Positions 2,619 to 39,213 of a DNA stretch of 51,245 nt are shown here, piece by piece. The notes beneath the pieces were generated by a model. It searched no databases. It was given only the letters and a program-made list of their open reading frames with translations, and had not been told where the DNA came from. Position 1 is the first letter of the stretch. Every line of letters starts with the position of its first letter. Both the position numbers and the translations under genes were made by a program. The stretch is from assembly GCA_030531425.1 (NCBI GenBank), contig JAUNNO010000003.1:1-51245 (forward strand), given 5' to 3'. Source of the DNA: a bacterium. GTDB taxonomy: Bacteria; Bacillota_I; Bacilli_A; RF39; UBA660.

Positions 2619-3181
2619 ACTTGCAGTCATTCCAGACCATTCTTTATATATTTCATTTGTAAGTATAGCAAATTCAACATTATCCTTGATTCCATTATCA
2701 TGCCATACTTGTGTTAATTTTTTCTATTTATAATAGCTTTAATTCTATGTTCAATCCATTCAAATGTATAACCTTTAGCTAAATAAAAATTTATCATCTC
2801 GTCTATACCTTTTGATGGATCAAATACTTCATCTATCTTTTGATGTCCTAATTTAGCTAACCATAGTTTAAATGGTTCAGCTTTAGGGCTTGGAACCGAT
2901 TCTATTAGTCTAAATATTCCTTTTGTATCTAGTGTGTCAGTTTCGCGTAGTTTTCCATCTTGAGCTTTCATTTTCAAACGTACGATATTTTCGTACAGTT
3001 GACTTCCTTCATCAATAAGTTTCCTTTTTAAATCAGTCCAATATCTTTTTGGTATTGCACTATCAGTTAATGCATATATTACGTCAACAACACTAAAATA
3101 ATAATCTTCTTTTTCACTATCCCATATACTTCTTATTTCATAGCCTTCAAATATATTTTTTATTGTATCTAATTTATTCAT
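2619..3181 (-). pseudogene. Bro-N domain protein, frameshifted and truncated
   Basis: Paralog of 38058..38924. A one-base loss in the A6 run at 2718-2723 shifts the frame. Homology resumes (LTQVWHDNGIKDNVEFAILTNEIYKEWSGMTAS) until the MITE end at 2618. Confidence 0.8.
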
Positions 3182-3208
3182 AATCACCTCAACTATTAAA
3201 AGCAGATA

Positions 3209-3535
3209 TTATTCTGCTTTCTTACTAGATAAAAATGTAACTTTTTCTGCTATCACTTCTGTTGTATATTTTTTATTTCCTTCAGCATTTTCATATACGC
3301 TTGTTTGAATTCTTCCTTTAATGCCAACAAGATCACCTTTCTTGCAATATTCAACTGTACTTTCTGCAACTCCTTTCCAAAGAACACAAGAAATAAAGTC
3401 AGTATCGTATTCACCATTCATATTTTTAAATGATCTTGGGACTGCTAAAGTTATGTTTGCTAGCTTACCTTTATCCGTTTTTTTTAATTCAGGCTCTTGA
3501 ACAATTCTTCCAACCAAAACTGCTTGATTAAGCAC
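3209..3535 (-). CDS. ssb: Single-stranded DNA-binding protein (short, no acidic DDLPF tail)
   Basis: MLNQAVLVGR...DFISCVLW...KGDLVGIKGRIQT is a typical SSB OB fold. GGAGG RBS, GTG start. Confidence 0.92.
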   Translation of the reverse strand: MLNQAVLVGRIVQEPELKKTDKGKLANITLAVPRSFKNMNGEYDTDFISCVLWKGVAESTVEYCKKGDLVGIKGRIQTSVYENAEGNKKYTTEVIAEKVTFLSSKKAE

Positions 3536-3731
3536 AATTTCCCTCCTTTCAGTTAAAGAATATCATATCAAACATACATTAGCAAAAGTATGAAATTGAT
3601 ATATAGATTTTAAAAAATATATATTTTTTCTTTTTTACAATATAAAACCTAAATACTTAAAATTATATATTGCAATTATTTAAATTTAATATTTTATAAA
3701 AAAAAATACAAATTTGATAATTTGTACTCCA

Positions 3732-5045
3732 TTAAAAATAATTTTTTAAAAGCGCATTTAATTCAACTGCATACTCCATTGGAAGCTCTTCTCTAAATCT
3801 ATCAATAAATCCCATTATTAACAACTCTTTCGCTTTTTCTAAAGTAAGTCCCCTACTCATAAGATAAAATAGTTTTTCCTTGCTTATTTTTGATACTGTT
3901 GCCTCGTGATTGATATTTGAAGAATCATTACAAACCTCATTTATGGGTATGGTATCACTTCTAGATATTTCATCTATTATTATAGTATCACATTTAACTG
4001 TACTTTTAGAATTAATTGCATCCTTACTAATCTTCACTTTACCTCTATAAGTAGCATCGCCACCATTTAAAGCTATTGATTTACTTATTATTTCGCTTGT
4101 TGTATTTGGAGCAAGATGTATCATACGAGCTCCAGCATCTTGTATTTGATCTTTCGCAGCAACAGCTATTGATATACACCTGCCTTTAGAATATTTACCA
4201 TTTAATATACAAGATGGATACTTCATATTGATTTTAGAGCCAATATTCCCATCAATCCACTCCATTAATCCAGAATCTTCTACTATTGCCCTTTTTGTTA
4301 CTAAATTATAAACATTATTAGACCAATTTTGAATAGTAGTGTATCTACATTTAGAGTTCTTACCAACATAAATTTCAACTACAGCTGCATGCAGCGAATC
4401 AGAAGAATATATAGGGGCTGTACAACCTTCCATATAATGCAACTGTGAATTATCATCAACAATAATAATTGTTCTTTCAAATTGTCCCATATTTACACTA
4501 TTTATTCTAAAATAACTTTGAAGTGGTCTATCCAATTTTGTATTAGGAGGTATATATATAAATGTTCCACCACTCCATACAGCTCCATTTAAAGCAGTAT
4601 ATTTATTTTCATCATAACTAACTAATTTATTAAAATATTTTTTAAATATTTTAGGATATCTTTTTAAAGCTGTATCTGTATCACAAAAAATAACATTTTT
4701 ATCTAGCAATTCTTTTAACATATTATGATATATAGATTCACTTTCTACTTGAGCACCTACACCAGCTAAATATTTTTGTTCTGCTTCTATTATTCCAAGC
4801 TTATCAAATGTGTTTTTTATATCTTGTGGAACATCATCCCAACTTTTAGATGACTCACCCACTTTTTTATAATATGTTATATCATCAAAATTAATCTTTA
4901 ATTCTGGCCCAAAAGATGGATTAGGTAATTCTTTGAATTTTTCATAGGATTTTAATCTAAAATCTAACATCCATTTTGGCTCTTTCTTAATTTTTGATAT
5001 TTCAATAATTTTTTGTCTATCAATACCCTTATGCATAAAATTCAC
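3732..5045 (-). CDS. sufB: Fe-S cluster assembly protein SufB
   Basis: [42 protein letters not shown]. Confidence 0.95.
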
Positions 5046-5092
5046 CTAACTACATTATACTAAATATTAAAAAAAATAAAAAGCAAAATTAA

Positions 5093-5515
5093 CTATTTTA
5101 GTTTTTTTTGCTTAACATTATCTTCTATTTCCTCTTTACTAATTAATTTTAAATAATCTTCATTACTTATTAAATTTCCATCTATAAATTTTTCGCCATT
5201 TTGGAGCCTTTTTATTATTTTTTTTGATTTTTCTATTTCATCTAGTGTGAAAGTTTTGGAAGGCATTCCTTTTACTCCCACTCTTTTACCATCTTTTATT
5301 TTATCTTTAAATTTAGTTAAAACAAAAAGTCTACTAACAGTTGGCAAAAAATCATATTGTTGCTCTGTTTCTATATCAATTACAATATTTTTTTCTTTAT
5401 CAATAACACAATTTCTAACTGGATAATCTGAAAAATTAGGTAAAACATTTATTTCATTTACAAAAATGAAAGGACATATGTATATGCAAACAATTTCAAA
5501 CCTATTTTCTTTCAT
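5093..5515 (-). CDS. Hypothetical protein
   Basis: ORF overlapping the sufU 3' end, with GGAGG RBS. Confidence 0.65.
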   Translation of the reverse strand: MKENRFEIVCIYICPFIFVNEINVLPNFSDYPVRNCVIDKEKNIVIDIETEQQYDFLPTVSRLFVLTKFKDKIKDGKRVGVKGMPSKTFTLDEIEKSKKIIKRLQNGEKFIDGNLISNEDYLKLISKEEIEDNVKQKKLK

Positions 5516-5948
5516 TTATATCACTTACCTCCAAAAAATCTTTTATACCATTCCAAGTTAATGTCGCACAATTTTTCCTATTAGGTTGTTTTGATATACC
5601 ATTATATACAAAAGCTTCACCCAATAAATCTTTATTATATTCCTTTTCATCAATCATATTATTAAAATTATTAATTATCTCTATTGCATCATTCAATGTT
5701 GTTCCAATTAATTTTTTTATCATTATTGAAGTAGAACTAGTACATATTGCACAAGCTTCACCATCAAAATGTATATCCTCTATTTTACCATTTACTAATT
5801 TTATTTCAAGATCTATTTGATCTATACAACTTTTACTATTAGTATTTATTTTACAATAAGTATTATCATTAACTAATCCCCTGTTAACAGGATTTTGATA
5901 ATTTTCTAATATTATTGCTCTTTTCAATTCATCATCCATACAAATCAC
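5502..5948 (-). CDS. sufU: SUF system NifU-like sulfur transfer protein SufU
   Basis: SCIDQI, FDGEACAICTSSTS, RKNCATLTW. Start may be ATG 5939. Confidence 0.92.
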   Translation of the reverse strand: MICMDDELKRAIILENYQNPVNRGLVNDNTYCKINTNSKSCIDQIDLEIKLVNGKIEDIHFDGEACAICTSSTSIMIKKLIGTTLNDAIEIINNFNNMIDEKEYNKDLLGEAFVYNGISKQPNRKNCATLTWNGIKDFLEVSDINERK

Positions 5949-6041
5949 ATAGTTATTATATTATATTTGAAATAAAATTGCAAATATGAATTTTTATTTT
6001 TTTCTTGAATATAATTTTAATATAGAAAGGATGAAATAAAT

Positions 6042-6302
6042 ATGGAAACACTTAAAGTAGGAACTAAGTCAAACCCTAATTCAGTAGCTGGAGCACTAGC
6101 TAATGTATTTAGAGAAAAAGGAAGTGTAGAAATACAAGCAATAGGTGCTGGAGCATTAAATCAAGCTATTAAAGCAATTGCTATAGCAAGAGGGTTTGTT
6201 GCTCCTAGTGGGAAAAACTTAGTATGTATACCAGCTTTCACAGATATTGTAATTGATGGTGATGAAAGAACAGCTATAAAATTAATAGTAGAAGCAAAAT
6301 AG
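6042..6302 (+). CDS. spoVS: Stage V sporulation protein S
   Basis: 86 aa, LKVGTKSNPNSVAGALA...AIGAGALNQAIKAIAIARGFVAPSG. Confidence 0.96.
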   Translation: METLKVGTKSNPNSVAGALANVFREKGSVEIQAIGAGALNQAIKAIAIARGFVAPSGKNLVCIPAFTDIVIDGDERTAIKLIVEAK

Positions 6303-6343
6303 CTTCTTTTTTTGATTTTTTCAGTATTTTTATAATTTAAGTA

Positions 6344-6372
6344 TTGACAAAAGAATATATATACTATATAAT
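6344..6372 (+). promoter_or_regulatory. Sigma-A promoter of tRNA-Gly
   Basis: TTGACA-17 bp-TATAAT, perfect consensus. Confidence 0.85.
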
Positions 6373-6390
6373 TTTAATTGTCTACGAATT

Positions 6391-6464
6391 GCGGGTGTAG
6401 TTCAATGGTAGAACTCCAGCCTTCCAAGCTGATAACGTGGGTCCGATTCCCATCACCCGCTCCA
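6391..6464 (+). tRNA. tRNA-Gly(TCC)
   Basis: Acceptor stem GCGGGTG/CACCCGC, D arm GTTC/GAAC, anticodon loop CTTCCAA, encoded CCA. Confidence 0.95.
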
Positions 6465-6466
6465 TT
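6445..6466 (+). repeat. attL core of the inovirus-like prophage
   Basis: GATTCCCATCACCCGCTCCATT is identical to 12195..12216. Extends to 29 bp with one mismatch (6438..6466 vs 12188..12216). Confidence 0.92.
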
Positions 6467-6475
6467 AAAGATTTG

Positions 6476-6507
6476 AAAAGAGTGTCAATGCCAGAGATAC
6501 TCTTTTT
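6476..6507. terminator. Bidirectional terminator between the tRNA and the integrase
   Basis: AAAAGAGTGTC...GATACTCTTTT hairpin with flanking A and T tracts. Confidence 0.65.
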
Positions 6508-7354
6508 AATGCAAATATACATCTACAGTCATAGATACAGTACTATGTCCCATTGACTTAGAAACAACATCAATTGGAGTTTTTTTATGTATCATGCGTG
6601 TTGCATAGCTATGTCTAAATTCATGTTGAGTTATTGGTTTTAAATTTGCTTTATTACAAGCTTTTAATTTATATCTATCAATGGTTGTTGGTGATAATGG
6701 CTTTACTCCACCAAAAATATAATAATCAAAACAATAGCCATATTTATTTATATACATATTTTTTAATATTTTAAACCTAAAAAGAGTTAGTAAACTAATT
6801 TTAATAGTTCTAATACTAGATTGATTTTTTGGAGTGTCAAGTTCTCTTCTTCCTTTTCTTTGAATACTATGATTTATATGTACTAAATTGTTTTCTAAAT
6901 CACTAAATCGTAAAGCCATAGCCTCACTAGGTCTAGTACCATAAAAAAACATAAAATTAAAATATTGTTTAATAATATAATTATCTAAATTATTCCTAAA
7001 TTTCAAGAACTCATTTAAAGTATAAATATTATGTTTTTTATTTTCAATTTTCTTTTTAAATTTAGGAACTTGCAAAACAATATTTTCATTTACAAAATCA
7101 CAATATTTACAATATCTAAAAAATGCACTAAATTCATAATATAAATTTTTATTAAAATTATTACTAAAATTAAATTGTAAGATATTATTTTGCCAGTTAA
7201 TAATATCAAGTTTAGTAATAGAATTTAATTTTCTATTTTTAAAATAAGGTAAAATATGCAAATTAAAATTTTTAACTATTGTTTCAAACCCTTGTTTTTT
7301 ATGCCGACTTGAAGCATATTCTAAATAATTATTGTAAGCTTCTTCAAAGCTCAT
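6506..7354 (-). CDS. Tyrosine recombinase / phage integrase
   Basis: Catalytic set GTRPSEA (R), TPKN (K), HEFRH (HxxR), MGH and VYLH (Y). Confidence 0.93.
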   Translation of the reverse strand: MSFEEAYNNYLEYASSRHKKQGFETIVKNFNLHILPYFKNRKLNSITKLDIINWQNNILQFNFSNNFNKNLYYEFSAFFRYCKYCDFVNENIVLQVPKFKKKIENKKHNIYTLNEFLKFRNNLDNYIIKQYFNFMFFYGTRPSEAMALRFSDLENNLVHINHSIQRKGRRELDTPKNQSSIRTIKISLLTLFRFKILKNMYINKYGYCFDYYIFGGVKPLSPTTIDRYKLKACNKANLKPITQHEFRHSYATRMIHKKTPIDVVSKSMGHSTVSMTVDVYLH

Positions 7355-7471
7355 TTTATCGCCTCCGGGCGAATATTATAACTAAAAATTATTTTTTGTC
7401 AAATCACCACCTAAGTTGATTATAACATAATATTAAAATAAAAAACAATAAAATATAGAAAGGAAATAATA

Positions 7472-7585
7472 ATGAATACGATTTTGGAAGAAATTAAAAA
7501 AATATTTGGAAGAGTTATTGGAAAAATACTATTAGCAATAATAATTATTATTATTTTTGCTATTATATCATCTTGCTCAAAATAA
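7472..7585 (+). CDS. 37-aa single-TM peptide, opposite strand to the other phage genes
   Basis: GAAAGGA RBS. MNTILEEIKKIFGRVIGKILLAIIIIIIFAIISSCSK. Confidence 0.55.
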   Translation: MNTILEEIKKIFGRVIGKILLAIIIIIIFAIISSCSK

Positions 7586-7604
7586 TTAGGACTAATGGTC
7601 TTTT

Positions 7605-8186
7605 TTATTTTGTTATTTCACCTAATTCAATATCTTTTATTTTATGTCTAATACTTGTAATAAAAGTATTAAAAAATATTGTATGACTAGCAGCAACACT
7701 CCACATCTGATTTAAATCATTTTCTAATAAAATTATAAGTAAATCAGAGTATTCTAATATATTATTTGCAATTATAAATTGTTGTATTTCTTTTTTATAT
7801 TTATCTATTTCAGTACGAGTTAATTCATTAACTTGATTAGTATCAAATCCATTAATTAAAATCCTATCCCTATCATCATATTGATATTTTTCAGGATTAT
7901 CTAAATGTATATGATATCTATACATACCTCGCAAGCTTTCAAGTTTAATAGGTATTGTCATATTAAGACTATCACAAAATTCTTTAACATGATTATAAGT
8001 AGTTGGTCCGTCATAATTAAATATAATATGATAATGCGATTTTTTTTCAGTGCCATCTGGATTAATATCATTATCATGTAATGGACTTACAGCTATCTGT
8101 AAGCCGGTGTCTTGAAGTTTATCAAGCCAATCAGTAGGAAGACTTTCGGGATATCCTACACTAGCCCAAATACGACCTTTTTTCAT
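7605..8186 (-). CDS. rep: Rolling-circle replication initiator, pMV158/Rep_2 family (HUH)
   Basis: YPES, SPLHDND, KKSHYHII (HUH), YHIHLDNPEKYQY. GAAAGGAG RBS before ATG 8186. Confidence 0.92.
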   Translation of the reverse strand: MKKGRIWASVGYPESLPTDWLDKLQDTGLQIAVSPLHDNDINPDGTEKKSHYHIIFNYDGPTTYNHVKEFCDSLNMTIPIKLESLRGMYRYHIHLDNPEKYQYDDRDRILINGFDTNQVNELTRTEIDKYKKEIQQFIIANNILEYSDLLIILLENDLNQMWSVAASHTIFFNTFITSIRHKIKDIELGEITK

Positions 8187-8226
8187 AAAAAACTCCTTTC
8201 GATTGTCACAATTCACAATGCACCCA

Positions 8227-8253
8227 TTGGGGGGTGTCGTAGTAACCCCCCAA
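8227..8253 (-). promoter_or_regulatory. Double-strand origin nick hairpin (pMV158/pE194 type)
   Basis: Minus strand TTGGGGGGT-TACTACGAC-ACCCCCCAA. The loop is the conserved TACTACG/AC nick sequence, just upstream of rep. Confidence 0.9.
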
Positions 8254-8291
8254 AAAATGATGTATTGATAGGTGGCATAAATGCCACACTA

Positions 8292-8936
8292 TCAATATTT
8301 TTGAAATTCTTTTGATGGTAATTCTTTATAAGAATAGCTGTCAAATAATTTCCACAATTTAGGGCAATAAATATATTTAGTACCAAAAATAACGAATTGA
8401 TATTGATCTATAAGTTGCTTACTAATTGAATCAATTCCTATTTTTTTAGAAACCTGTTTTCTCTTAACAAAACCAGGAAATATTGATTTATTAACTATAA
8501 ATATTCGGGTAGCTAATTTACGAAGTTTTAAATCAATATCAAAATCTTGAGAAAACATGGCAATATCTACATTATAGTGTCTATGAAATTTATAAAAATA
8601 AGTTTCATCGTGACTAAAAGATTTAAAATTTCTATTATTATAATCAATTCCAGCCTCGTCCATTATTAATAAACAATCTTTAATCATATAAGTGCCAATA
8701 TCACTTTTAACAACTTTATAACTACCTTTTATAGGTACGTTAGAAAGAACAACTCCAAATTTTTTATTTTTTTTACCCTTTTTAAATCTTTTCTTAGCTA
8801 AATAAGCGGCGAAAGTTGTTTTTCCACTTCCAGGTACACCAATATACATATCAAATCTATTTGATTTATGTGAACGCAAATTTCCGATGAAAATCCAAAG
8901 AAAAAAACAACTTCCTAAAAAAATTATAAATTTCAT
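8292..8936 (-). CDS. Zot/pI-like assembly ATPase with N-terminal TM
   Basis: Walker A GVPGSGKT, Walker B LLIMDEAG, HRHYNVDIAMFSQ, hydrophobic N-terminus. Confidence 0.9.
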   Translation of the reverse strand: MKFIIFLGSCFFLWIFIGNLRSHKSNRFDMYIGVPGSGKTTFAAYLAKKRFKKGKKNKKFGVVLSNVPIKGSYKVVKSDIGTYMIKDCLLIMDEAGIDYNNRNFKSFSHDETYFYKFHRHYNVDIAMFSQDFDIDLKLRKLATRIFIVNKSIFPGFVKRKQVSKKIGIDSISKQLIDQYQFVIFGTKYIYCPKLWKLFDSYSYKELPSKEFQKY

Positions 8937-9019
8937 AAAAATTTCTCCTTTTGGTTAGTAACATTAAAATGATAAAGTATTATCATTTTAATACAAAACC
9001 ATTATAATTAAATATTAGC

Positions 9020-9078
9020 GTCAATAATTTTCTCGGCATAAAAGCAACAAGTTGCATTTATTCCAATTGCTTATTGAC
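9020..9078 (-). promoter_or_regulatory. Single-strand origin (ssoA/RSB-like) hairpin
   Basis: TTTATGCCGAGAAAA (RSB-like, 9028-9042) on the nicked strand, inside an imperfect hairpin closed by GTCAATAA/TTATTGAC. Confidence 0.7.
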
Positions 9079-9079
9079 T

Positions 9080-9286
9080 CTATCTAAAAATTAAGTTTTT
9101 ACCTAATAAGACAACAAATTTTACAATTTTTAAAACAATAAATAATATAAATATAAATGCTAAATTTAATATTATAAATCCTATAAATTTAATATCATCG
9201 GTTAAATTTAAAAATCCAAAATTTGTTTGTAAAAATTCAAGATAAGTATTCCAATATATGTAAAATGGTATATTATTTATATTCAT
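9080..9286 (-). CDS. Small single-TM phage protein
   Basis: 68 aa, hydrophobic core with basic C-terminus. Coupled to the upstream ORF by TAATG. Confidence 0.75.
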   Translation of the reverse strand: MNINNIPFYIYWNTYLEFLQTNFGFLNLTDDIKFIGFIILNLAFIFILFIVLKIVKFVVLLGKNLIFR

Positions 9287-9444
9287 TATCTCACAACCTT
9301 TTTAAATATAATGCTAATTGGTATTATAAAAACGCAAAATGTAGTAATAACTAAAAACAAAGTAGTTAAATCATAAAGCCAAGTTAAGGTAATAGGTAAC
9401 TCACCTAATATTCTAACTGACATATTATAAAATGAAATATCCAT
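9286..9444 (-). CDS. Small single-TM phage protein (52 aa, not in ORF track)
   Basis: AAGGAG RBS. MDISFYNMSVRILGELPITLTWLYDLTTLFLVITTFCVFIIPISIIFKKVVR; stop overlaps the next ATG. Confidence 0.75.
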   Translation of the reverse strand: MDISFYNMSVRILGELPITLTWLYDLTTLFLVITTFCVFIIPISIIFKKVVR

Positions 9445-9447
9445 TTT

Positions 9448-9651
9448 TTATTCGTCTCCTTTCTTACTAGAGCCACCAAAAGAAAAATCGCTAAAATTTA
9501 AAAGAAAATATAATATTAAAGCTAGTGTAAAAAAGCCTAATAAGAACATTCCTAATGAAATATCAGGATTTTCGTTTATTTTTAAGTCAAAAATCCAAGA
9601 AAAACATCTTGAAATTATATTAATCCAAAAATTAAATACATTAACCAACAA
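9448..9651 (-). CDS. Small membrane phage protein
   Basis: 67 aa with a TM segment, overlapping the upstream ORF. Confidence 0.7.
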   Translation of the reverse strand: MLVNVFNFWINIISRCFSWIFDLKINENPDISLGMFLLGFFTLALILYFLLNFSDFSFGGSSKKGDE

Positions 9652-9847
9652 TCAAACGCACCACCTTAAAAATTAAAACTATAAGTAAAAATGATATAAA
9701 AGATAAAATAACAATATCAAAAGGGGACGGTATTAAATCAATTAAATTATAAAATAATGAAGGTAAATCAATTATAAATTTAACAAAAGAAGATATACCT
9801 TGATTTAATACCGAAATTAAATCAGCAATAGAGTTTAAAAAATCCAT
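9641..9847 (-). CDS. Small membrane phage protein (pVI-like position)
   Basis: 68 aa, amphipathic then TM segment, directly after the pIII-like gene (TAATG coupling). Confidence 0.72.
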   Translation of the reverse strand: MDFLNSIADLISVLNQGISSFVKFIIDLPSLFYNLIDLIPSPFDIVILSFISFLLIVLIFKVVRLIVG

Positions 9848-11283: not shown

Positions 11284-11290
11284 AATTAAC

Positions 11291-30949: not shown

Positions 30950-31408
30950 GTGATATATATGATTGGTAATAACTTAAAATATGCAAGAGAAGAACTTGAA
31001 ATGACGCAAAAAGAACTAGGTTATGTTTTTGGTGTTAGTCAAAGCACTGTAGCTGGATGGGAAAATGCTATTGATGTAATTCCATTTAATAAATTAATTA
31101 GATTTTGTAATTTATATAATTATTCGTTAGATTTTATTTGCGGATTTACTAGAAAAAATACTGAATATGGTACTTTTAAAATTGACAAAGTTAAAATTGG
31201 AAAGAAATTAAAGGAATTAAGAACTGAACTTAAATTATCACAACAACAAATTGCTGCTGATTGTGGATTTTTCAAATCAACTTATGGCAATTATGAAGTG
31301 GGAAGATATTTAATTAATACCATGAATATTTATAGTATTTGTAAAACTTATAATATATCAATGGATTGGATTGTCGGAAGGACAAACAAAAAAAGTATGA
31401 ATCAATAA
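30950..31408 (+). CDS. XRE regulator with two HTH domains
   Basis: MTQKELG..VSQSTVAGWE and LSQQQIA..KSTYGNYE. Confidence 0.88.
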   Translation: MIYMIGNNLKYAREELEMTQKELGYVFGVSQSTVAGWENAIDVIPFNKLIRFCNLYNYSLDFICGFTRKNTEYGTFKIDKVKIGKKLKELRTELKLSQQQIAADCGFFKSTYGNYEVGRYLINTMNIYSICKTYNISMDWIVGRTNKKSMNQ

Positions 31409-31504
31409 TAATTTGAAACATACTTTTTTATTTTTTATGACTAGTGACGGCATGACGGCAAATTTTGGGTGGGTACCACCTAATTTTTCCTGTCATTGCT
31501 GTCA

Positions 31505-31954
31505 TTATTTTTTATATTTATACATTTTTTCAGCAAGTTCTTTATTTTCTCTATTAGCACTATTTACTGCCATTAGATTACACAAAATTGAAATAGTAAA
31601 TAGTATATAAACAATTACTATTACATAAGGATTGGTCTTAATACTTTTATTAAACATTTCTAAAGCCATAACTACTAAATATAAAAGACCGCTTAATACT
31701 AATGTCCCAGTTGTTAAACCGTCAAATGAATATCTAATAGCTTTAGAATCTTTTTTATCAACATTCCATTCACCAACTTTAGTCCATTTATATAGATAAT
31801 ATGTTTCACATACTAGCATTACAGGAACTATAATCCAATAAATAGCATAATAATTATCTTTGTTAGTTGTCAGACACAATATCATAAATATAAGTAATAT
31901 AACATTTATAATTATTCTTAATATATCAAATATCTTTTTAGTTTTTCTTTGCAT
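31505..31954 (-). CDS. 4-TM membrane protein
   Basis: Four hydrophobic segments; overlaps the 3' end of the XRE gene. Confidence 0.7.
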   Translation of the reverse strand: MQRKTKKIFDILRIIINVILLIFMILCLTTNKDNYYAIYWIIVPVMLVCETYYLYKWTKVGEWNVDKKDSKAIRYSFDGLTTGTLVLSGLLYLVVMALEMFNKSIKTNPYVIVIVYILFTISILCNLMAVNSANRENKELAEKMYKYKK

Positions 31955-32450
31955 TCTCTATATTCTCCTTTCTTCTAGCACTATTTAAAACATTAACTAT
32001 TTCTTTGGCTGTTCTAATTTGATATTCTGTATCTTCAATAGTTTGTTCTATTTGCTCTCTTTGAGTTTCATTGTAATCTTTTTCTTCTAGGTCTTTTTTA
32101 AATTGTTCTACCATTTCCTCCCAGTTCTTAATAACTGATGAAGTATTAAGGATAGCATCAACAATTTGATCCCCCTTTAATCCAGAATAATAATTAATTA
32201 AGAATGGATTTAAAGGTGTAACTTGAAATCCTAGCCCAGCAGCATACATTAAATCATTATAGTTTAAACCAATTACTTTACTAATCTTTCTTAATGTTTT
32301 AGGATTAGGTATTTCTCTTTCTCCTGATTCAATACGAGCAAGTTCAGTATCACTTATTTTAGCAATTCTTGATAATTCTCTTTTAGATAAATGCTTTTCT
32401 TCTCTTGCTCTGGCAATCATTTGCCCAACAGTTTCTTCATTATTAATCAT
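31938..32450 (-). CDS. XRE family repressor
   Basis: LSKRELSRIAKISDTELARIESGER..P. AAGGAG RBS before ATG 32450. Confidence 0.88.
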   Translation of the reverse strand: MINNEETVGQMIARAREEKHLSKRELSRIAKISDTELARIESGEREIPNPKTLRKISKVIGLNYNDLMYAAGLGFQVTPLNPFLINYYSGLKGDQIVDAILNTSSVIKNWEEMVEQFKKDLEEKDYNETQREQIEQTIEDTEYQIRTAKEIVNVLNSARRKENIENAKKN

Positions 32451-32529
32451 ACGAATTAACTCCTTTCGCAATATAAATATAACATATTTTTAATACATTT
32501 GCAACCTTTTTAAAGAAATTTACATAAAT

Positions 32530-32590
32530 TTGCAACTTAATAGTTGACAAATTATTTTTTATAGTATATACTCAACTTATAAGTTGCATT
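32530..32590 (+). promoter_or_regulatory. Sigma-A promoter overlapped by palindromic operators
   Basis: TTGACA (32544)-17-TATACT (32567). CAACT-N4-AGTTG palindromes at ~32533-32546 and 32573-32586. Confidence 0.7.
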
Positions 32591-32816
32591 TTTAATTAAA
32601 ATTCAACTTAAATACTGTTCTTTGAAAATTAAATAGAGTTGGAAATCGCCGATATCTGCCGACTCGTTAAACAAATGCAAGGCAAACATCCTATTGGCAC
32701 GGAAGTTGTGGATTAACTAATATCCTCGTTACATATATGGCTAATAACTATATATACATCCTTAAAGGGAGTTGTTGGTAACACTAAAACCATCAGAAAG
32801 GAAAGGAAGGTAATAA

Positions 32817-33068
32817 ATGAATGCAGAAGAAACACTAAAATTAATTTCTACTAAAACTTGGTGCAATATTAATGATTTAATGAAGCTTACAGGATTAAGT
32901 AGAAGTTCAGCATTAAAGATTAGAAATAAAATCAAAGACACACTAAATTATGAAATTCATACAAGAGATTTACCAATGAATGTTGTAATTGATTATCTAA
33001 ATATTGATGTTGAATATTTAAAAAATGTCGCAACTAGAAAGGAGGTGCAAGATGAAAACAATAAGTGA
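32817..33068 (+). CDS. Small HTH DNA-binding protein (excisionase-like)
   Basis: INDLMKLTGLSRSSALKI; first gene of the rep/mob operon. Confidence 0.65.
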   Translation: MNAEETLKLISTKTWCNINDLMKLTGLSRSSALKIRNKIKDTLNYEIHTRDLPMNVVIDYLNIDVEYLKNVATRKEVQDENNK

Positions 33069-34008
33069 AATGAGAAAAGAAAACATTAAAAAAGATTTCA
33101 TAGTTGAGAACTTTATGAAATCTAATGGGTTATATTGTCTTGTTGCTAGACCAAAGGTTGGCAAGTCGTTACTCGCACTACAACTTGCTAACTCGATAGC
33201 AACAGGAACAAACTTTTTAGGATTTAGAACAAGTCCTTCTCCTGTCTTATATATTAGCACAGAAATGAATTTTTCACAAATTTTAGATAGAATCGACAAG
33301 ATGAAACTTGAATTTACTGATGATAATTTTAGATTAAAAGAACAGGAAATTAATGAAAGAAAATTAAATTTAATGGACTTACAACTAGAGTTTCAAGAGT
33401 TTGCAAATGACCTTAAAGGTAAATTTGTAATTATAGATATGTTTAGTGGAATTGATTTAAACAATGGTTATGATTTAAATAATTATCAAGATATGGGACA
33501 ATATGTTATTCCAAAATTTAGAGAATTATGTAAAAGATATAACTTTACAATTTTATTAATTCATCATCTAAATAAGAATAATAAATCACTTGGCTCTACT
33601 GCTATTGATGGCTCAGTTGATGGAATTATCACTTTAAAAAGAGATCAAAATCTTAAAGATAAAATACTATTAAGTTATGAAAGTAGAGATTATGAAAGTA
33701 TTGATTTAGTTTTAAAAAGAAATAAAGATTTAACATTTGAAGTATCAGAAACTGATAGTAATGATTTAAATCTTAACCTTATAATTTTTCTAAATTATGC
33801 TATTAAACAAAAAGATTTTTCATTCACAATTTCTGATATAATTAGTGATTTAAAATTACAAATTACACCATCAGTATTTGGAAAATTATTAAAGCAAAAT
33901 TTAGATAATTTAGAAAAAGAAGGTCTTCATATTGAATCAAAAAGAACTGGTCCTGATAGATTATATCATGCAAAATATGAAGAACCTATCTTTGAAGATT
34001 TAGAATAA
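33052..34008 (+). CDS. AAA_25 / RepA-like helicase ATPase
   Basis: ARPKVGKS, VLYISTE, VIID, LIHHLNK, LGSTAI. Confidence 0.85.
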   Translation: MKTISEMRKENIKKDFIVENFMKSNGLYCLVARPKVGKSLLALQLANSIATGTNFLGFRTSPSPVLYISTEMNFSQILDRIDKMKLEFTDDNFRLKEQEINERKLNLMDLQLEFQEFANDLKGKFVIIDMFSGIDLNNGYDLNNYQDMGQYVIPKFRELCKRYNFTILLIHHLNKNNKSLGSTAIDGSVDGIITLKRDQNLKDKILLSYESRDYESIDLVLKRNKDLTFEVSETDSNDLNLNLIIFLNYAIKQKDFSFTISDIISDLKLQITPSVFGKLLKQNLDNLEKEGLHIESKRTGPDRLYHAKYEEPIFEDLE

Positions 34009-34191
34009 TCTTCAAAATTTTTGATAACTTTTTTCTAAAAAGTTAGTAAAAAATGAACGAGGCACGTTTTGTTTTTCGTAAGAAAAATGAAAGTGGCGAT
34101 AGTGAATATTTTTACAATTATTAAAATGATTTTTAAATCAGTTTTAATAATTCATTAAATAATAAGTATCTGATAGATAGTTATTATTTAA

Positions 34192-34322
34192 TCTTGTTTA
34201 TAAGCATTTGCCTTTGCTACTGCTTAGGCATTTGCGAATAAACAAGCAAAGGGGTTTTTAGGGAACTCCCTAAACTCACGGTGGGCTATGCCCTAGTGAG
34301 ATAGGTCAATAAATGACCTTTC
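34192..34322 (+). promoter_or_regulatory. Hairpin cluster upstream of mobV, candidate oriT / origin
   Basis: Several inverted repeats (CTTGTTTAT/ATAAACAAG, TTTAGGGA/TCCCTAAA, CTCAC/GTGAG, AGGTCA/TGACCT). GTGGGCTAT resembles MOBV nick regions. Confidence 0.5.
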
Positions 34323-34353
34323 TACTAAAGAAGTACAGCAAGGAGGTGTAAAA

Positions 34354-35826
34354 ATGTACGATGGAAATCAAGTTTTGAGATTTGAAAGCAAATATAAAGC
34401 AAAAGATTTAGGTGGACTTGGTGTAGAACTTACTCAAAGAAAAGGTACAGGAAATTATGATAAAGATAGAACTGAGTTTAATCATAGTTTCGTACCACTT
34501 ACTAAACCAACTTTGCAAGAGCAGGTCTATTCTAAATTAAAAGAAAATAAAATATATTATAATGATGGCAAGAATACCAATTTATTAAATGGTGCTATCG
34601 TTACAAGTGGAAAAGAATTTTTTCAAAGTTTGGGAATGAAGTTTAAAGCAAGTGATAGGATTCAACAAGTAGGAAAAAATAAAGGAAAACCTATCTATAT
34701 TCCTGATATAAAAAGTGATGAAGATATTCCAGAAAAAGTTAAAAATTTTTTCAAAGATAGTTACAACTTTTTAGAAGAACTTGTTGGTAAAGATAATATA
34801 GTTTATGCAGAAGTTCATTACGATGAAGATACTCCACACATGCACTTTTATTTTATGCCAATCGTAAATGAAGTAAGAAGAAAAGTTTTTGAAACAGATT
34901 TAAACGGAAATATAATTTATCGAGAAGGTATAGATAAAAAAGGTAATAAAAAAATGTATCCTGTCCAAAAGAAAGATGAGAATGGTAAAAATATTTTTAA
35001 AGTAGAACAAGGTAAATTTCTAAATTGTGATCAGTTTTGGAAAGCATTAGGTGGTAAAGTATCTTATGCAAAAATACAAGATGATTATAATAAATATATT
35101 ACTGAAAAAGGATACAAGTTATTCAGAGGCAATATTGGAGATAATAAACATCATATAACTAAAGCTCAAAAAGAAATTGAGGATTTAAATGAACAAATTG
35201 AAGAAATGAAAATTGAGTTTGAAAGAAATAAAAAATTAAATGATATTGAAATAGAAACTGCTAAAGAAATTTCTGAAATAGATTCAAAAGAAGTTTTAAA
35301 TCCAGTAAAAAGAAAAGTAATCGGTTATAAAGATGAAGATATCAACAATTTAATTGATTATTCGAAAAAGATACAAAAGCAAAATTCTAATAGTAAAAAT
35401 GTCATTAAACAAAAAGATGTATTAATTGATGAACTTACTACTAAAGTAGGACATCTACAAAGTGAGAACAATAAATTAAAAGATGGTCGTGCTATTAAAG
35501 AACGAGATACTAGAATTTATGAACAACAACAAACTATATCCAAGCAAAAAACAATCATTAAGGAAAAGGAATCTATTATTAAAAAGTTAGAAGATAAAGT
35601 TACTGAAATACAAGAAACATTTAATAACTTTAAAGAAAAGATGTTTAACTTTTGTGATAAGATTTGCAGAGCTTTAGGTCATAAAATTGGTCTTCACTTC
35701 TCTAAAAATTATGATATCGACTATAATGAAATGGAATATTATGCTCAGGAAGTAAATCGCAAGTATGAAAAGTCTTATGAAAGACCAGAAAAAGATAAAT
35801 CAGATGATTTTGAAATAGGAATGTAA
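34354..35826 (+). CDS. mobV: MobV/Pre family relaxase
   Basis: DKDRTEFN, AEVHYDEDTPHMHF, QDDY, long coiled-coil C-terminus. Confidence 0.92.
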   Translation: MYDGNQVLRFESKYKAKDLGGLGVELTQRKGTGNYDKDRTEFNHSFVPLTKPTLQEQVYSKLKENKIYYNDGKNTNLLNGAIVTSGKEFFQSLGMKFKASDRIQQVGKNKGKPIYIPDIKSDEDIPEKVKNFFKDSYNFLEELVGKDNIVYAEVHYDEDTPHMHFYFMPIVNEVRRKVFETDLNGNIIYREGIDKKGNKKMYPVQKKDENGKNIFKVEQGKFLNCDQFWKALGGKVSYAKIQDDYNKYITEKGYKLFRGNIGDNKHHITKAQKEIEDLNEQIEEMKIEFERNKKLNDIEIETAKEISEIDSKEVLNPVKRKVIGYKDEDINNLIDYSKKIQKQNSNSKNVIKQKDVLIDELTTKVGHLQSENNKLKDGRAIKERDTRIYEQQQTISKQKTIIKEKESIIKKLEDKVTEIQETFNNFKEKMFNFCDKICRALGHKIGLHFSKNYDIDYNEMEYYAQEVNRKYEKSYERPEKDKSDDFEIGM

Positions 35827-36052
35827 GTATTTAACTCTTAATATTTAAAAAAAGACTTTTGTAACCAAAAAAATATGTGTTGTATAAATGTGATAATAAA
35901 ATTAATAATAACCTTTTTATAAAAAATGTACCAAAAATAAAAATTTAAATTTAGTAATGATTGGAGGATTGATATTATGGAGAAAAATTTACAAAAAAGT
36001 TATTACAATAGTCTTTTTATCTCTCAAACTTGAGTATGAAAGGAGTTTAACA

Positions 36053-36178
36053 ATGACATACAATATTATTGATATTGTAGATAAAGATTTAACTGATACT
36101 AAACTAAAAGAAATAGTTAATAAAAAGTTGTATAAAATCATTGAATTGTTGGAGTTTAATGTTAATTATTCTGAATAG
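36053..36178 (+). CDS. 41-aa protein upstream of the recombinase (possible directionality factor)
   Basis: GAAAGGAG RBS before ATG 36053. Function inferred from position only. Confidence 0.55.
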   Translation: MTYNIIDIVDKDLTDTKLKEIVNKKLYKIIELLEFNVNYSE

Positions 36179-36249
36179 ATGTTATAATAGTATTGGTTAT
36201 AAGTTTAACTTTAAACTTAATTATTACCTTAGAATTGGAGGTAATAGTT

Positions 36250-37863
36250 ATGAATGAAATGGAGAGTGTTGAGAGTAAGAAAGTATTAAGAGTTGGTATT
36301 TATTTAAGATTATCTAATGAAGACAGAGATAAAGCAAATAAAGAAGATGATAGTGAATCTATTAAGAATCAAAGAAATATGCTTATTGACTATGTTAATA
36401 AGCATCCCGAATTTGCCTTAATAGATGAGTATTGTGATGAAGATTTATCTGGTGCTGGAACTTATAGACCTGAATTTGAAAGATTAATTAGAGATTGTGA
36501 AAACAGAAAACTTGATATTGTATTATGTAAAAGTCAATCAAGATTTTCAAGAGATATGGAAATTGTTGAGAAATATATCAATAACAAGTTTAAAGAATGG
36601 AATATTAGATTTATCGGTTTATCTGATAATGCTGATACTGAAATTCTAGGTAATAAGAAATCAAGACAAATAAATGGTCTAGTTAATGAATGGTACTTGG
36701 AAGATGTTTCAAACAATATAAGAAGTGCTTTTAATTCCAAAATGAAGCAAGGAGAATTCATTTCTCCTTTTGCCTCATTTGGTTATGAAATTGATCCGAA
36801 TGATAATAACAAATTAATAGTCGATCCAGTCGCTTCTGAAATTGTAAAAAACATCTATAATCTATATCTAACAGGTTTAGGGTTTACAGGTATAGCTAAA
36901 TACTTAAATAGTAAAGAAATACCTTGTCCTTCCCTTTATAAATACCGAAAAGGCATTAAATTAAATGTAATTAGTAATAGACCTCGTGAAGAAATAAAAT
37001 GGACTACAAATGCTATTAAAACAATTCTAACAAATGAAGTTTATCTAGGACATTTAATACAAGGCAAAAGAACTACTGTTAGTTATAAAAATCACAAGAT
37101 TAGAAATAAAGATAAAAGCGAATGGATAAGAATTGAAAATACACACGAAGCTATCATTGATGAAGAAACATTTAGTAAAGTACAAATTGCTATGAAAGAA
37201 AGAACTAAACCTATGAGTACAACGGGTGCAGTTCATATCTTCTCTGGTAAAGTATTTTGTTTAGAATGTGAACATTATATGAGAAAAAAGAATACTAAAA
37301 AGCATGAATATTTAGTCTGTTCTAATAATCGTGATGGTTATGATGATTGCGAAAACAAAGCTTCAATTAGATATGATGAACTTGCAAATCTAGTATTAGA
37401 TGCAATTAATAAGAAAATTCAAAAGTTTTATGATGAAGAAGAATTAGAAAATTTAGATTCAAAAAAAGTTGATAGTAGATTCAAGAAAAAAATAAAAGCC
37501 TTAGAAAAACAAAAAACTGATATTCAAAATAGAATTTCTAAAACAAGAAATTATTTACAAAATCTTTATGAAGATAAAGTCAATGGTGTTGTAACATCAG
37601 AACAATTTAAAGATTTAATGGCAAATTATAATAAAGATGAAGATACTTTCAATGACCAAATTAAATCTATTACTAATGAAATTGCTTATTACAAAATGAA
37701 AGAAGAATCTTCAAAGAATAATAAAGAGATATTTAACAAATATCAAAAATTAGAAGAATTAAACAGAGTTATTGTTGATGAATTTATAGATAAAATCTAT
37801 ATTGGAAAGTTAAATGAAGAAACCAAAAGTAGAGATATACAAATTAAATGGAATTTTGAATAG
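36250..37863 (+). CDS. Large serine recombinase
   Basis: YLRLS, SG..RPEF, SRFSR, recombinase domain, Zn ribbon CLEC...C...C, coiled coil. Confidence 0.95.
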   Translation: MNEMESVESKKVLRVGIYLRLSNEDRDKANKEDDSESIKNQRNMLIDYVNKHPEFALIDEYCDEDLSGAGTYRPEFERLIRDCENRKLDIVLCKSQSRFSRDMEIVEKYINNKFKEWNIRFIGLSDNADTEILGNKKSRQINGLVNEWYLEDVSNNIRSAFNSKMKQGEFISPFASFGYEIDPNDNNKLIVDPVASEIVKNIYNLYLTGLGFTGIAKYLNSKEIPCPSLYKYRKGIKLNVISNRPREEIKWTTNAIKTILTNEVYLGHLIQGKRTTVSYKNHKIRNKDKSEWIRIENTHEAIIDEETFSKVQIAMKERTKPMSTTGAVHIFSGKVFCLECEHYMRKKNTKKHEYLVCSNNRDGYDDCENKASIRYDELANLVLDAINKKIQKFYDEEELENLDSKKVDSRFKKKIKALEKQKTDIQNRISKTRNYLQNLYEDKVNGVVTSEQFKDLMANYNKDEDTFNDQIKSITNEIAYYKMKEESSKNNKEIFNKYQKLEELNRVIVDEFIDKIYIGKLNEETKSRDIQIKWNFE

Positions 37864-37904
37864 AGATTTTATTCTCTATTCTAATTCCAAATACATAGTA
37901 AAGG

Positions 37905-38000
37905 AGCAATGTGCAAAAAATGCACTTTGCAAATTTGGATAACCATGTATCACTTTATAACCTAGATGTTATTATTAGTGTTGGTTATCGAATTAAAAAT
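37905..38000 (+). pseudogene. RhuM-family gene fragment
   Basis: Translates SNVQKMHFANLDNHVSLYNLDVIISVGYRIKN; YNLDVIISVGYR is the RhuM signature. In-frame stop just upstream. Confidence 0.75.
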
Positions 38001-38057
38001 TCAACTTGTCAATTTTTCTGACAAGTTGAAATAATCTTAAAAATATAGAGAAAGGAT

Positions 38058-38924
38058 GTGAAAAAAATGGGACAAAACAAGTTAGAAACAATTACTAATC
38101 TATTTGAAGGTAAAGAAATTAGAAGTATTTGGGATAGCGAAAAAGAAGAATATTATTTTAGTGTAGTTGATGTTATTGCTGTCTTAACTGATAGTAAAGA
38201 TTCTAGTGATTATTGGACAACCCTTAAAAGAAGATTAATTAAAGATGAAGGAAGTGAACTTCCGACAAATTGTCGGAGTTTGAAACTAAAAGCTAAAGAT
38301 GGCAAAATGAGAAATACTGATACATTAAATACCAAATGGATTTTTAGACTTATAGAATCAGTTCCTAGCCCTAAAGCAGAGCCATTTAAAGTTTGGTTAG
38401 CTAATTTAGGTAGTGAAAGAATCGATGAAGTGTTTGACCCAGAAATAGCTGCTAATAGAATTGTAAACTATTATCGTAATAAAGGTTATACTGATGAATG
38501 GATAAAGAAAAGATTAACAGGTATTGTTGATAGATTTAAACTAACTGATATATGGAAAGATGGTGGCATTGAAAAACCAGTTGAATATGCTCTACTTACA
38601 AATGAAATATATAAAGGTTGGTCTGGAATGAAAGCAAGTGAATACAAATCATATAAAGGTTTAAGAAAAGAATCTTTAAGAGATAATATGACAGATATTG
38701 AAATTGCTTTAACTAACATTGGTGAAATCGCTGCTCGTGATATTGCTAAAACTGAACATCCACAAGGATTAGGCGAAAATATGAAAGTTGCCGCTCGTGG
38801 TGGAAGAGTTGCTAAAGGTGCTAGAGATTTATATGAAGAAGAAACAAAAACATCAGCTATTTCAAAAGAAAATGCACTAAATTATCAATATAAAGATGAT
38901 AATAAATTAATTGAAAATAAATAA
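38058..38924 (+). CDS. Bro-N domain protein (phage antirepressor-like)
   Basis: IRSIWD..YYFSVVDVI, RLIESVPSPKAEPFK.WLA, LRDNMTDIE. Confidence 0.9.
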   Translation: MKKMGQNKLETITNLFEGKEIRSIWDSEKEEYYFSVVDVIAVLTDSKDSSDYWTTLKRRLIKDEGSELPTNCRSLKLKAKDGKMRNTDTLNTKWIFRLIESVPSPKAEPFKVWLANLGSERIDEVFDPEIAANRIVNYYRNKGYTDEWIKKRLTGIVDRFKLTDIWKDGGIEKPVEYALLTNEIYKGWSGMKASEYKSYKGLRKESLRDNMTDIEIALTNIGEIAARDIAKTEHPQGLGENMKVAARGGRVAKGARDLYEEETKTSAISKENALNYQYKDDNKLIENK

Positions 38925-39213
38925 TATAAATCTCAACATTGATAATTAAGTGAATCGGTCACAAATTGTGACCAATTGAGCATAAAATTAACAAACAATA
39001 ACTTAAAAATGAAAAAAATATAGGTTGTATCAGGACACACTTTGCAAACCTATATAAAATAAGACTTTCTTAAAATAAATTTAAAACTTGTAAAACTAAA
39101 AAGTTAAACTTTTATGAAATATTTATCCTTTAGGTTAAAAAAAAGGCTTGAATCAGGTAGCCAGCAAACCCTTATAAATAAAGGAAATAATGAAAAAATG
39201 TCTTCACTGCATT

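Follow-up and report, generated by a model that had tools for sequence, protein, structure and literature searches.

Why would two genes of one family carry a DNA palindrome at the same position of the encoded protein, when the palindromes themselves differ in sequence? The question is posed by a stretch of 51,245 nucleotides from a bacterium of the RF39 lineage (assembly GCA_030531425.1, contig JAUNNO010000003.1, positions 1 to 51,245), to the whole of which we refer as the window. It contains two genes with a Bro-N N-terminal domain, here called gene 1 and gene 2, each with such a palindrome in its coding sequence, and two orphan palindromes that flank gene 2. From the sequences it appears about evenly poised whether each of these proteins binds, as a dimer, a dyad site within its own gene, the DNA-recognition helix and the site forming a portable specificity module.

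A palindrome at one position in Bro-N genes

Gene 2 is intact and lies at 38058-38924 on the plus strand, encoding 288 amino acids from a GTG start or 285 from the ATG at 38067. Gene 1, on the minus strand at 2714-3187, is a paralogue that has suffered a frameshift and lost its 3' end; its open reading frame (ORF) comprises 157 amino acids. Residues 6-160 align with 66% identity, the homology runs on to about 2598 in a different frame, and the following piece has two stops. Both exceed the cut-off of 25.6 bits for Pfam Bro-N (PF02498), gene 1 with 38.3 and gene 2 with 38.2 bits. Gene 2 matches the PADLOC candidate defence family PDC-S13 (E = 1.4e-110, profile positions 6-275 of 286) and its N-domain also matches PDC-S04 (E = 7.7e-25); no NCBIfam family model matched gene 2, and a literature query for the name PDC-S13 matched no paper. 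The Bro-N/PDC-S13 family is spread over many phyla and viral contigs. A protein search returned at least 8000 homologues of gene 2 at E ≤ 1e-10, the best 120 being at least 79% identical to it.

The coding palindrome of gene 1 is found at 2972-3004 on the minus strand, encoding SQLYENIVRLK (33.7 bits with model R1), and that of gene 2 at 38253-38285 on the plus strand, encoding SELPTNCRSLK and of the Pro/Arg class. The two orphans, also on the plus strand, are of the Val/Asp class (GTC...GAC). Orphan A (37999-38031; 21.3 bits) has a perfect 12-bp stem and a 7-nt spacer, and orphan B (38949-38981; 37.9 bits) begins 25 nt past the stop codon of gene 2. A RhuM gene remnant discussed below contains a fifth, similar palindrome (37906-37930). 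The positions and letters that the initial annotation had given for the first four agree throughout with the window sequence, as does its placing of the dyad centre at the middle base of codon 6, about which 11, 11, 12 and 12 of 16 possible pairs are Watson-Crick.

Such palindromes are rare in this genome. With 14-nt arms the four copies form 11, 11, 11 and 12 pairs, and all rank within the top 33 of the 51,217 odd centres of the window, which has a GC content of 25%. At least 11 of 14 pairs are reached by 702 centres across the whole 1.32-Mb assembly, the majority of them A+T-only or terminator-like; few contain G+C and have the CA(R)(Y)T arm signature, and three that do (38015, 38269 and 38965) lie inside 1 kb around gene 2. 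As single-stranded DNA, the four copies fold with energies of -7.5, -6.3, -11.0 and -6.3 kcal/mol, that of orphan A being the -11.0 kcal/mol, with z-scores of -2.8 to -4.9. Each of the five palindrome cores, that of gene 2 being 15 nt in length, is unique in its own genome even when up to two mismatches are allowed. Thus the sole cognate site found is the one within the gene itself. Since each core is single-copy, dispersed repeats of the repetitive extragenic palindrome or miniature inverted-repeat transposable element kind (REP- or MITE-like) are ruled out.

How widespread is the palindrome among Bro-N genes? We took 80 loci from species genomes of many phyla; among the matches listed, 599 of 601 pattern matches are relatives. 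Of 84 homologous 33-nt segments cut out, 80 are in-frame runs of 11 codons without stops, and 73 of these are distinct. The site has arms of about 12-13 bp around an A/T centre of 1-5 nt, a dyad of roughly 29 bases, and is present in Bacillota, Bacteroidota, Proteobacteria, Saccharibacteria, Spirochaetes and methanogen assemblies. With 14-nt arms the 73 distinct sites have a mean of 11.9 Watson-Crick pairs, compared with 7.2 when the same peptide is re-coded with the codon usage of the gene (2000 synonymous-codon shuffles each). At 57,983 other centres of the same ORFs the mean is 3.6, and a fraction of only 8.6e-5 of them reach 11 of 14. The shuffles give P < 0.01 for 64 of the 73 sites and P < 0.05 for 72, and the site outscores every other centre of its ORF in 69 of the 73 genes (3 ties). 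The homologues therefore lie far above codon-shuffled controls, the comparison on which the initial annotation had let its observation stand or fall.

The annotation had also remarked that both arms change together in the window copies, and this holds for the family as a whole. In a 12-pair alignment of the 73 sites 92.9% of the cells are paired, compared with 65.9% in column shuffles (0 of 500 reaching the observed value), and sliding the pairing partner by 1-3 columns leaves 24-40% of cells paired. Cells changed on both arms number 232, against 74 in shuffles, and compensatory change occurs at 10 of the 12 pairs. Among the best 120 proteins, residues 4 and 8 of the 11-residue segment fall into the classes P/R, T/S, V/D, Y/V, H/V and S/R, all of which correspond to reverse-complementary codon pairs. 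Covariation is equally seen where it is synonymous, a 5' GAG TTG going with a 3' CAA CTG and a 5' GAA CTG with a 3' CAG TTG. Nucleotide alignment thus reveals the compensatory arm covariation that had been sought, together with the excess variability described below.

The palindrome appears to act at the level of DNA, and of neither RNA nor protein. This follows from a signal that is symmetric between the strands (stem mismatches comprise 9 of the G.T type and 12 of the A.C type) and from a spacer that is used in both orientations. The central nonamer ACAAATTGT was found 23 times and its counterpart ACAATTTGT 4 times, and a second such pair, ACAAAATGT and ACATTTTGT, 8 and 6 times; flipping the spacer turns an Asn codon at the centre into one for Ile, or a Lys codon into one for Phe. 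A β-hairpin with cross-strand pairs P/R, V/D and Y/V was considered and rejected on the synonymous covariation, the different frame of the RhuM genes and the secondary structure of an AlphaFold2 (AF2) model of gene 2, in which the palindrome-coded segment forms a loop and the start of a strand and no β-hairpin. Because the same nucleotides are kept under two translations, in Bro-N and in RhuM, and the segment is a loop in the model, a cause at the protein level is excluded. Turning to RNA, an Rfam scan of 37800-39200 at E ≤ 10 gave chance-level rows only (best E-value 0.61), and there is no T-run behind the in-gene stems on the sense strand. A cis-regulatory RNA was rejected for want of an Rfam family and of G.U tolerance, and for loops in both orientations; an intrinsic terminator was rejected because only orphan A fits, and on the minus strand only, and the in-gene sites do not.

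Coupling of the palindrome to a predicted recognition helix

The AF2 model of gene 2 offers a structural setting for the site. Its N-domain is predicted with pLDDT (predicted local distance difference test) values of 78-92, and consists in order of two strands, a helix at residues 33-40, a second helix at 46-59, a loop and a two-stranded wing (70-75 and 81-88) with the sequence DGK at its tip. From this layout we name the predicted fold winged-helix-like. The second helix, a predicted recognition helix with the motif YWxxLKxxL (residues 46-59 of the 285-residue form), is encoded at 38202-38243 on the plus strand, directly upstream of the palindrome.

Helix, palindrome and first wing strand together make up a hypervariable block at 38194-38315 (plus strand), recognized by mismatch rates, mosaic gene pairs and a metagenome contig. 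In 119 close homologues the mismatch per site over residues 41-90, a region roughly centred on the palindrome, is 0.23-0.39, compared with 0.08-0.18 in most other blocks, so the block is 2-3 times more variable than the rest. Compared with locus L021, loci L004 and L007 show 97-99% identity over the first 145 nt and 85-88% downstream, yet only 45-69% over helix and palindrome. The opposite mosaic also occurs, in gene pairs where the 33-mers share 97-100% of their letters and the flanks only 58-69%. In Logan metagenome contigs from bovine and other gut sources, depth (counted at a likeness of at least 85%) dips across 38202-38289, and one contig has 128 different letters in place of 38194-38315. 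The ends of the exchanged block lie off the palindrome, about 75 nt upstream on the 5' side and 15-100 nt downstream on the 3' side. These comparisons show about 120 nt being exchanged en bloc between genes that are otherwise nearly identical. One homologue, protein P0001 of 381 amino acids, has an internal partial duplication, so that a single ORF contains two cassettes (SELTTKCSQLK and SELHENIVQLK).

If the helix reads the palindrome, residues of the one should track bases of the other. Adding 80 loci from viral contigs (where 141 of 150 pattern matches are relatives) and those of the genus gave 153 unique helix-plus-palindrome stretches. We consider pair 5, in which the last base of codon 4 pairs with the first of codon 8, and the residue x2 of the helix, defined by YW-x1-x2-LK. 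Where pair 5 is G:C (n = 53), x2 is K in 43, R in 7, T in 2 and Q in 1; where it is T:A (n = 51), x2 is V in 37, W in 7, T in 5, K in 1 and R in 1; and where it is C:G (n = 48), x2 is D in 38, A in 5, T in 2, V in 2 and M in 1. The coupling of T with Val persists in the V/N, T/S, A/S, L/K and P/S codon contexts, and that of G with Lys is seen in V/H, L/Q and G/P contexts, with Arg taking its place in S/R. These pairings agree with textbook read-out preferences, in which G goes with Lys or Arg, T with a hydrophobic side chain and C with Asp.

The same picture emerges without choosing residues beforehand. Mutual information (MI) with the base pairs was calculated for 179 variable columns of the protein, from which the 11 palindrome-encoded residues had been excluded. 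The columns that score highest for pairs 3-8 are at -18, -16, -15, -12, -11, -8 and -7, counted from the start of the segment. Together they form one face of the helix, whose N-terminal residues are coupled to the outer pairs and whose C-terminal residues to the inner ones. Wing residues +13, +18 and +19 rank highest for pairs 10-11. MI relative to entropy (MI/H) rises to 0.98, and 111 C-terminal columns have maxima of 0.16-0.27 with a median near 0.1. The very variable residues -5 to -1, which are nearer the palindrome, are absent from the top columns, and this argues against a simple linkage that depends on distance. We also counted independent pairs on a tree built from the rest of the protein (the backbone), on which pair 5 changes state 28-38 times among 145 genes. 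For G with K/R, 17.8 pairs changed the same way, 0 the opposite way and 4.2 showed no change; the corresponding values are 15.7, 0 and 4.3 for T with V/W, and 13.1, 0 and 2.9 for C with D.

Dyad symmetry of the site would be matched by symmetry of the protein. Gene 2 is predicted to form a symmetric homodimer with a score of 0.70, the best control scoring 0.00; of benchmark proteins, 20 of the 30 with structures solved as pairs attained this score, as did 1 of the 23 solved as single chains. The homodimer runs agree in at least 85% of contacts, with partner pLDDT of at least 79. The predicted interface comprises residues 88-136, the most conserved of the protein, and leaves the helix free.

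These elements can be assembled into a mechanism. The Bro-N protein would assemble as a symmetric homodimer, and its winged-helix-like N-domain would bind the palindrome situated about 10-50 nt downstream of the codons for its own recognition helix. Counting outwards from the centre of the dyad, base pairs 3-8 would be read by the helix and pairs 10-11 by the wing, the two helices lying about one turn of DNA apart over pairs 3-8 with the wings further out. Seated on its own gene, the protein might exert autoregulation through an intragenic operator or roadblock, or serve some other form of self-recognition. The helix and site, as a block of about 120 nt, would be inherited jointly and recombined between paralogues, whereby paralogues in one genome would come to carry different, orthogonal pairs. 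In this scheme 38253-38285 is probably the dyad-symmetric binding site of gene 2's own product. We infer the binding of the site, the regulation of the gene by it and a defence role for the family. Intragenic autoregulation would be the simplest effect, and would suit genes that land without a promoter in restriction-modification operons.

Related families, orphan copies and the genomic neighbourhood

The palindrome is not confined to Bro-N genes. RhuM genes near some Bro-N loci carry the same type, comprising CAGTT, a variable stem, an A/T centre and AACTG, in another frame (reading for example SVVRNFRTTA) and 10 nt closer to the conserved DGK turn. At least 10 of 13 pairs are formed at the fixed position in 34 of 37 RhuM genes (37 loci), as against 4 of 222 control windows of the same genes. 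The RhuM genes with this palindrome include those of loci L132-L161, L017, L048, L050, L068, L013 and L098, and variants of the RhuM helix I-x-x-H-I/L-x-N-I go with palindrome classes. A third family is DUF1016/YhcG, where a different palindrome was first noticed in the genome under study, though outside the window (L247:1620-1670, contig C55), and then followed in the set L242-L271. It is fixed at one position of DUF1016_N (..F-P-x-x-x-T-L-x-x-x-L-S-W..). At least 9 of 12 pairs are present in 28 of 31 genes, against 18 of 184 control windows, and at least 10 of 12 in 17 of 31, against 4 of 184. Here too the stems covary, and both orientations of the centre (ACACTGT and ACAGTGT) are found. The sequence family is distinct from that of Bro-N and RhuM, for which reason a site belonging to each domain fits better than one external factor shared by all. 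In a published study, RhuM and DUF1016 are reported to be enriched beside phase-variable type I restriction-modification genes (PMC9881135). We tentatively extend the proposal to all three families, at a little less than even probability: Bro-N/PDC-S13, RhuM and DUF1016/YhcG, typically found in type I restriction-modification operons and defence islands, may each hold, inside the sequence that encodes their DNA-binding domain, the dyad which that domain recognizes, with helix and site as a portable, hypervariable cassette of about 120 nt.

What, then, are the copies that lie outside intact genes? Immediately upstream of orphan A is a remnant of a RhuM gene at 37905-37997 on the plus strand, which starts at the 5' edge of its own palindrome (37906-37930), 42 nt past the stop codon of a serine recombinase gene, and ends 1 nt before orphan A. 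It scores 25.5 bits (E = 9.5e-6) with Pfam RhuM (PF13310), under the cut-off of 33.7. By blastn it is identical at 81 and 80 of 93 positions to intact RhuM-Fic genes of two related genomes, the homology being confined to 37905-37997, limits that accord with the loose ends at 37905 and 37991 seen in metagenome contigs. A tblastn search of the window with two RhuM proteins found the remnant only, and no N-terminal RhuM half, which leaves insertion of the recombinase element into a RhuM gene, at the palindrome of that gene, a conjecture. The intact relatives (L098, which is G014:C12, and L099, which is G020:C10) encode a 319-residue RhuM-Fic fusion, located between a methyltransferase gene and an rsmI-like gene, outside any restriction-modification operon. 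In another part of the genome under study (G000:C47:8653-8729) two palindrome-only orphans of the Bro-N type, 44 nt apart, directly follow the stop codon of a RhuM-Fic gene.

At 38006-38035 a promoter-like sequence for gene 2 (TTGTCA, 18 nt, AATAAT) coincides in part with orphan A, which on the minus strand resembles an intrinsic terminator. Orphan B has a 24-nt core that is matched at 24 of 24 positions in G011:C19, where it is intergenic between unrelated genes, and the identity stops at the edges of the palindrome. One metagenome contig (run X6) has 34 other letters instead of 38919-39002, the stretch that holds orphan B, and would thus come from a related lineage without it. Apparent fragments of the 3' end of gene 2 on contigs C4 and C56 proved to be A+T-rich chance matches within other genes.

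A covariance model of the site finds matches in 22 of the 27 genomes of the genus. The 35 placeable sites are divided among genes that look intact (14), orphan or pseudogene pieces (14), partial genes (4) and places cut by contig ends (3). Arrays of 2-4 different palindromes at a spacing of 100-300 nt are present in related genomes; one 560-nt spacer (G020:C55) contains four different palindromes amid decayed Bro-N pieces with stop codons, one of them being palindrome-only. Orphans occur in either orientation. Few sources beyond the genus have one, roughly 6 of 81 (besides the window these are L011, L035, L036, L041 and L071). The copies downstream of genes in L035, L036 and L041 lie 100-145 nt past the stop codon, and the right half of the L041 copy equals the right half of its own gene's palindrome. 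Orphans A and B and the palindrome of the RhuM remnant are best read, from these sequence comparisons, as remains of lost paralogues. That a dyad should outlive the rest of its gene could be due to arm-to-arm correction, to deletions that end at the stems, or to residual use.

On its other side the serine recombinase gene belongs to what appears as a mobilisable element adjoining gene 2 (31938-37863). Besides one small ORF it carries, by Pfam matches, an XRE regulator (31938-32471, minus strand), an AAA_25 ATPase (33025-34008), a MobV relaxase (34354-35826) and the large serine recombinase of 556 amino acids with DUF4368 (36193-37863, plus strand). Presumably it is akin to the clostridial serine-recombinase transposons; no empty site for it was found. 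Between the divergent XRE gene and the element genes, at 32540-32610, three CAACTT/AAGTTG copies form even-centred palindromes (e.g. 32573-32586) next to a promoter-like pair TTGACA...TATATA, and these are probably XRE operators. Beyond gene 2, a 121-residue ORF at 39190-39555 corresponds to only the C-terminal part of an ABC-transporter ATPase. Its N-terminal part was not found nearby, indicating an insertion or deletion to its left.

Alternative explanations and known systems

Several observations weigh against binding of each protein to its own gene. Helix and palindrome codons are only 30-55 nt apart and move together in recombination blocks, so co-inheritance will inflate their association; and because the block moves as a unit, the independent pairs demonstrate co-transfer at least, and are no proof of repeated origin. 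The coupling of C with Asp is confounded with a single super-class having a GAA/ATC centre. The C-terminal two thirds of the AF2 model have pLDDT below 50, and a Foldseek search of the whole gene 2 model against the PDB gave no match at E ≤ 0.001, a result made weak by that low-confidence part. Orphan A differs in class from gene 2 (Val/Asp rather than Pro/Arg) and is thus no obvious operator for it, and perfect dyads persist in decayed, non-coding gene pieces where the cognate protein may be missing. Lastly, the near-complete symmetry at positions 2-12 exceeds what most operators need, and would also be given by a hairpin function or by template switching from arm to arm.

What other processes could generate or hold such a palindrome? 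The last point is the basis of a reading in which it is a functionless quasi-palindrome that perpetuates itself, template switching between the arms copying changes and flipping the spacer through mutation bias alone. The strand-symmetric mismatches, the spacer in both orientations and the perfect dyads lasting in stop-bearing pseudogene debris all agree with it, as does symmetry that reaches positions 1-2 (51 and 63 of 80 sites), which are unpairable in a hairpin. We nevertheless think it decidedly improbable, given the great rarity of equally strong coding palindromes at other places in these genes (the 8.6e-5 of 57,983 centres at 11 of 14), the fixed position of the dyad in three families of one genomic niche (34 of 37 RhuM and 28 of 31 DUF1016 genes) and the identical 33-mers inside genes with saturated flanks; nor would it explain a specific coupling to helix and wing residues. 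That coupling is equally unexplained if the palindrome is an initiator of recombination, extruding as a hairpin or cruciform that is cut or stalls replication, with repair from paralogues diversifying the block. Here the replaced, palindrome-containing block in otherwise near-identical genes (L004 and L007 against L021), the contig with 38194-38315 replaced, variability roughly centred on the palindrome at residues 41-90, the spacer inversions, the 28-38 changes of pair 5 among 145 genes, and fragments that end at palindrome edges (the RhuM remnant at 37905-37997 and the orphan B core shared with G011) are all as expected. Yet the block ends are not at the palindrome, being about 75 nt upstream and 15-100 nt downstream, flanking homology by itself can account for the exchange, and second-order selection for a break site would be needed. 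We regard initiation of recombination as rather unlikely as the explanation in its own right; as an analogue of structure-initiated antigenic variation, it could coexist with binding of the site by the protein.

The position of the orphans about gene 2 and beside the serine recombinase gene suggests instead silent donor cassettes or site-specific recombination sites, att- or attC-like, for example for that recombinase. The arrays of 2-4 palindromes in related genomes would suit this, as would downstream copies 25-145 nt past a stop codon, which recur in L035, L036 and L041. We consider it very unlikely. Pieces of the arrays have stops in the segment that would be donated and some are palindrome-only, devoid of flanking homology; few orphans occur beyond the genus; the family extends over many phyla and viral contigs, where most loci need no recombinase; and in the window neither an empty site nor a split second half of RhuM was found. 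Gene conversion from silent cassettes was set aside on the pieces of the G020:C55 array, with their stops in the segment and one palindrome-only member. So was an integron attC, an imperfect inverted repeat that spans about 57-141 bp beside cassettes and an integron integrase, as compared with 27-33 nt for the sites inside these genes (no search for an integrase was made), and a dif-like site was dropped on size and context. An mRNA stem-loop controlling translation, stability or processing would draw on a stable stem with compensatory changes in a transcribed region. It deserves barely any weight: G.U pairs are not tolerated (9 G.T against 12 A.C mismatches), reverse-complement loops alter the RNA loop and leave the DNA dyad unchanged, Val tracks T and contact with the thymine methyl group is a feature of DNA, the best Rfam match has an E-value of 0.61 and no sense-strand T-run follows the in-gene stems, and the orphans occur in either orientation.

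Binding of the site by the protein it encodes corresponds to one of three explanations put forward in the initial annotation, an operator within the coding sequence of its own protein, and is the one best supported by the sequences, through the strand-symmetric dyad, the adjacency of the helix, the covariation of residues with bases and the predicted dimer. The others fare less evenly. The segment does lie in a block that is 2-3 times more variable and swapped as a unit, as a diversifying cassette should; however, orphan and array pieces that contain stop codons are poor donors, and mutation templated by the hairpin is undemonstrated. The idea that the orphans are remnants of paralogues is borne out for two of them by the decaying, palindrome-bearing Bro-N pieces of related genomes, but their selective retention is not.

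What would self-binding mean? A single stretch of 29 bp would serve both as protein code and as binding site of its product, and this would explain self-regulation by genes that arrive without a promoter in restriction-modification operons. With its roughly 120 nt, a specificity cassette would provide autoregulation independent of any promoter wherever the gene lands, keep paralogues orthogonal and be shuffled whole. For this fold the covariation would constitute a natural table of residue-to-base read-out, and there would be dozens of naturally orthogonal repressor/operator pairs whose specificity can be read from it. It would also give a first functional handle on PDC-S13, RhuM and DUF1016, which are very common families. 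Even without binding, a coding palindrome kept in two frames by compensatory and synonymous changes is an unusual constraint, relevant to annotators and to codon-based tests of selection.

No description of these palindromes turned up in our literature searches, which covered mostly titles and the openings of abstracts. As far as we know, the new element is a hypervariable dyad within the codons of its binder's own DNA-binding domain, kept across phyla and, in two families, under different reading frames. Operators inside genes, and a partition protein whose site lies within its own gene, are kinds already known. Perfect inverted repeats with both arms coding occur in mitochondrial genes of Nematomorpha, where, in the part of that account available, they are up to 284 bp long, numerous and lineage-specific, with no cognate binding protein proposed (PMC6649704). 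The Bro-N genes differ from that description in having one short dyad, at a position fixed for the family and coupled to a recognition helix. Among other systems that invite comparison, quasi-palindromes are hotspots of template switching at which arms are homogenised, the spacer can invert and deletions end at the bases of the stem. Such hotspots are mutational rather than conserved elements, and would not account for a fixed position, conservation across phyla or coupling of residues to bases. The controller (C) proteins of restriction-modification systems are small helix-turn-helix dimers that regulate themselves through palindromic C-boxes and have diversified in specificity against cross-talk. 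In these respects they resemble what we propose, but the C-boxes are upstream of the gene and not in coding sequence, and the proteins have no homology to Bro-N. ParB/Spo0J has a palindromic cognate site, parS, inside its own gene and co-inherited with it. However, parS is nearly invariant and serves chromosome segregation, whereas the Bro-N site is hypervariable, specific to each paralogue and located in a candidate defence gene of no homology to ParB. Closest in kind are the intragenic operators or roadblock sites, lac O2 inside lacZ and the internal gal operator, in which a dyad repressor site lies within coding sequence and the DNA serves two codes. The Bro-N dyad, with its putative binding, goes further in lying inside the regulator's own gene, among the codons of its DNA-binding domain, and in being kept across phyla with a sequence that diversifies together with the recognition helix.

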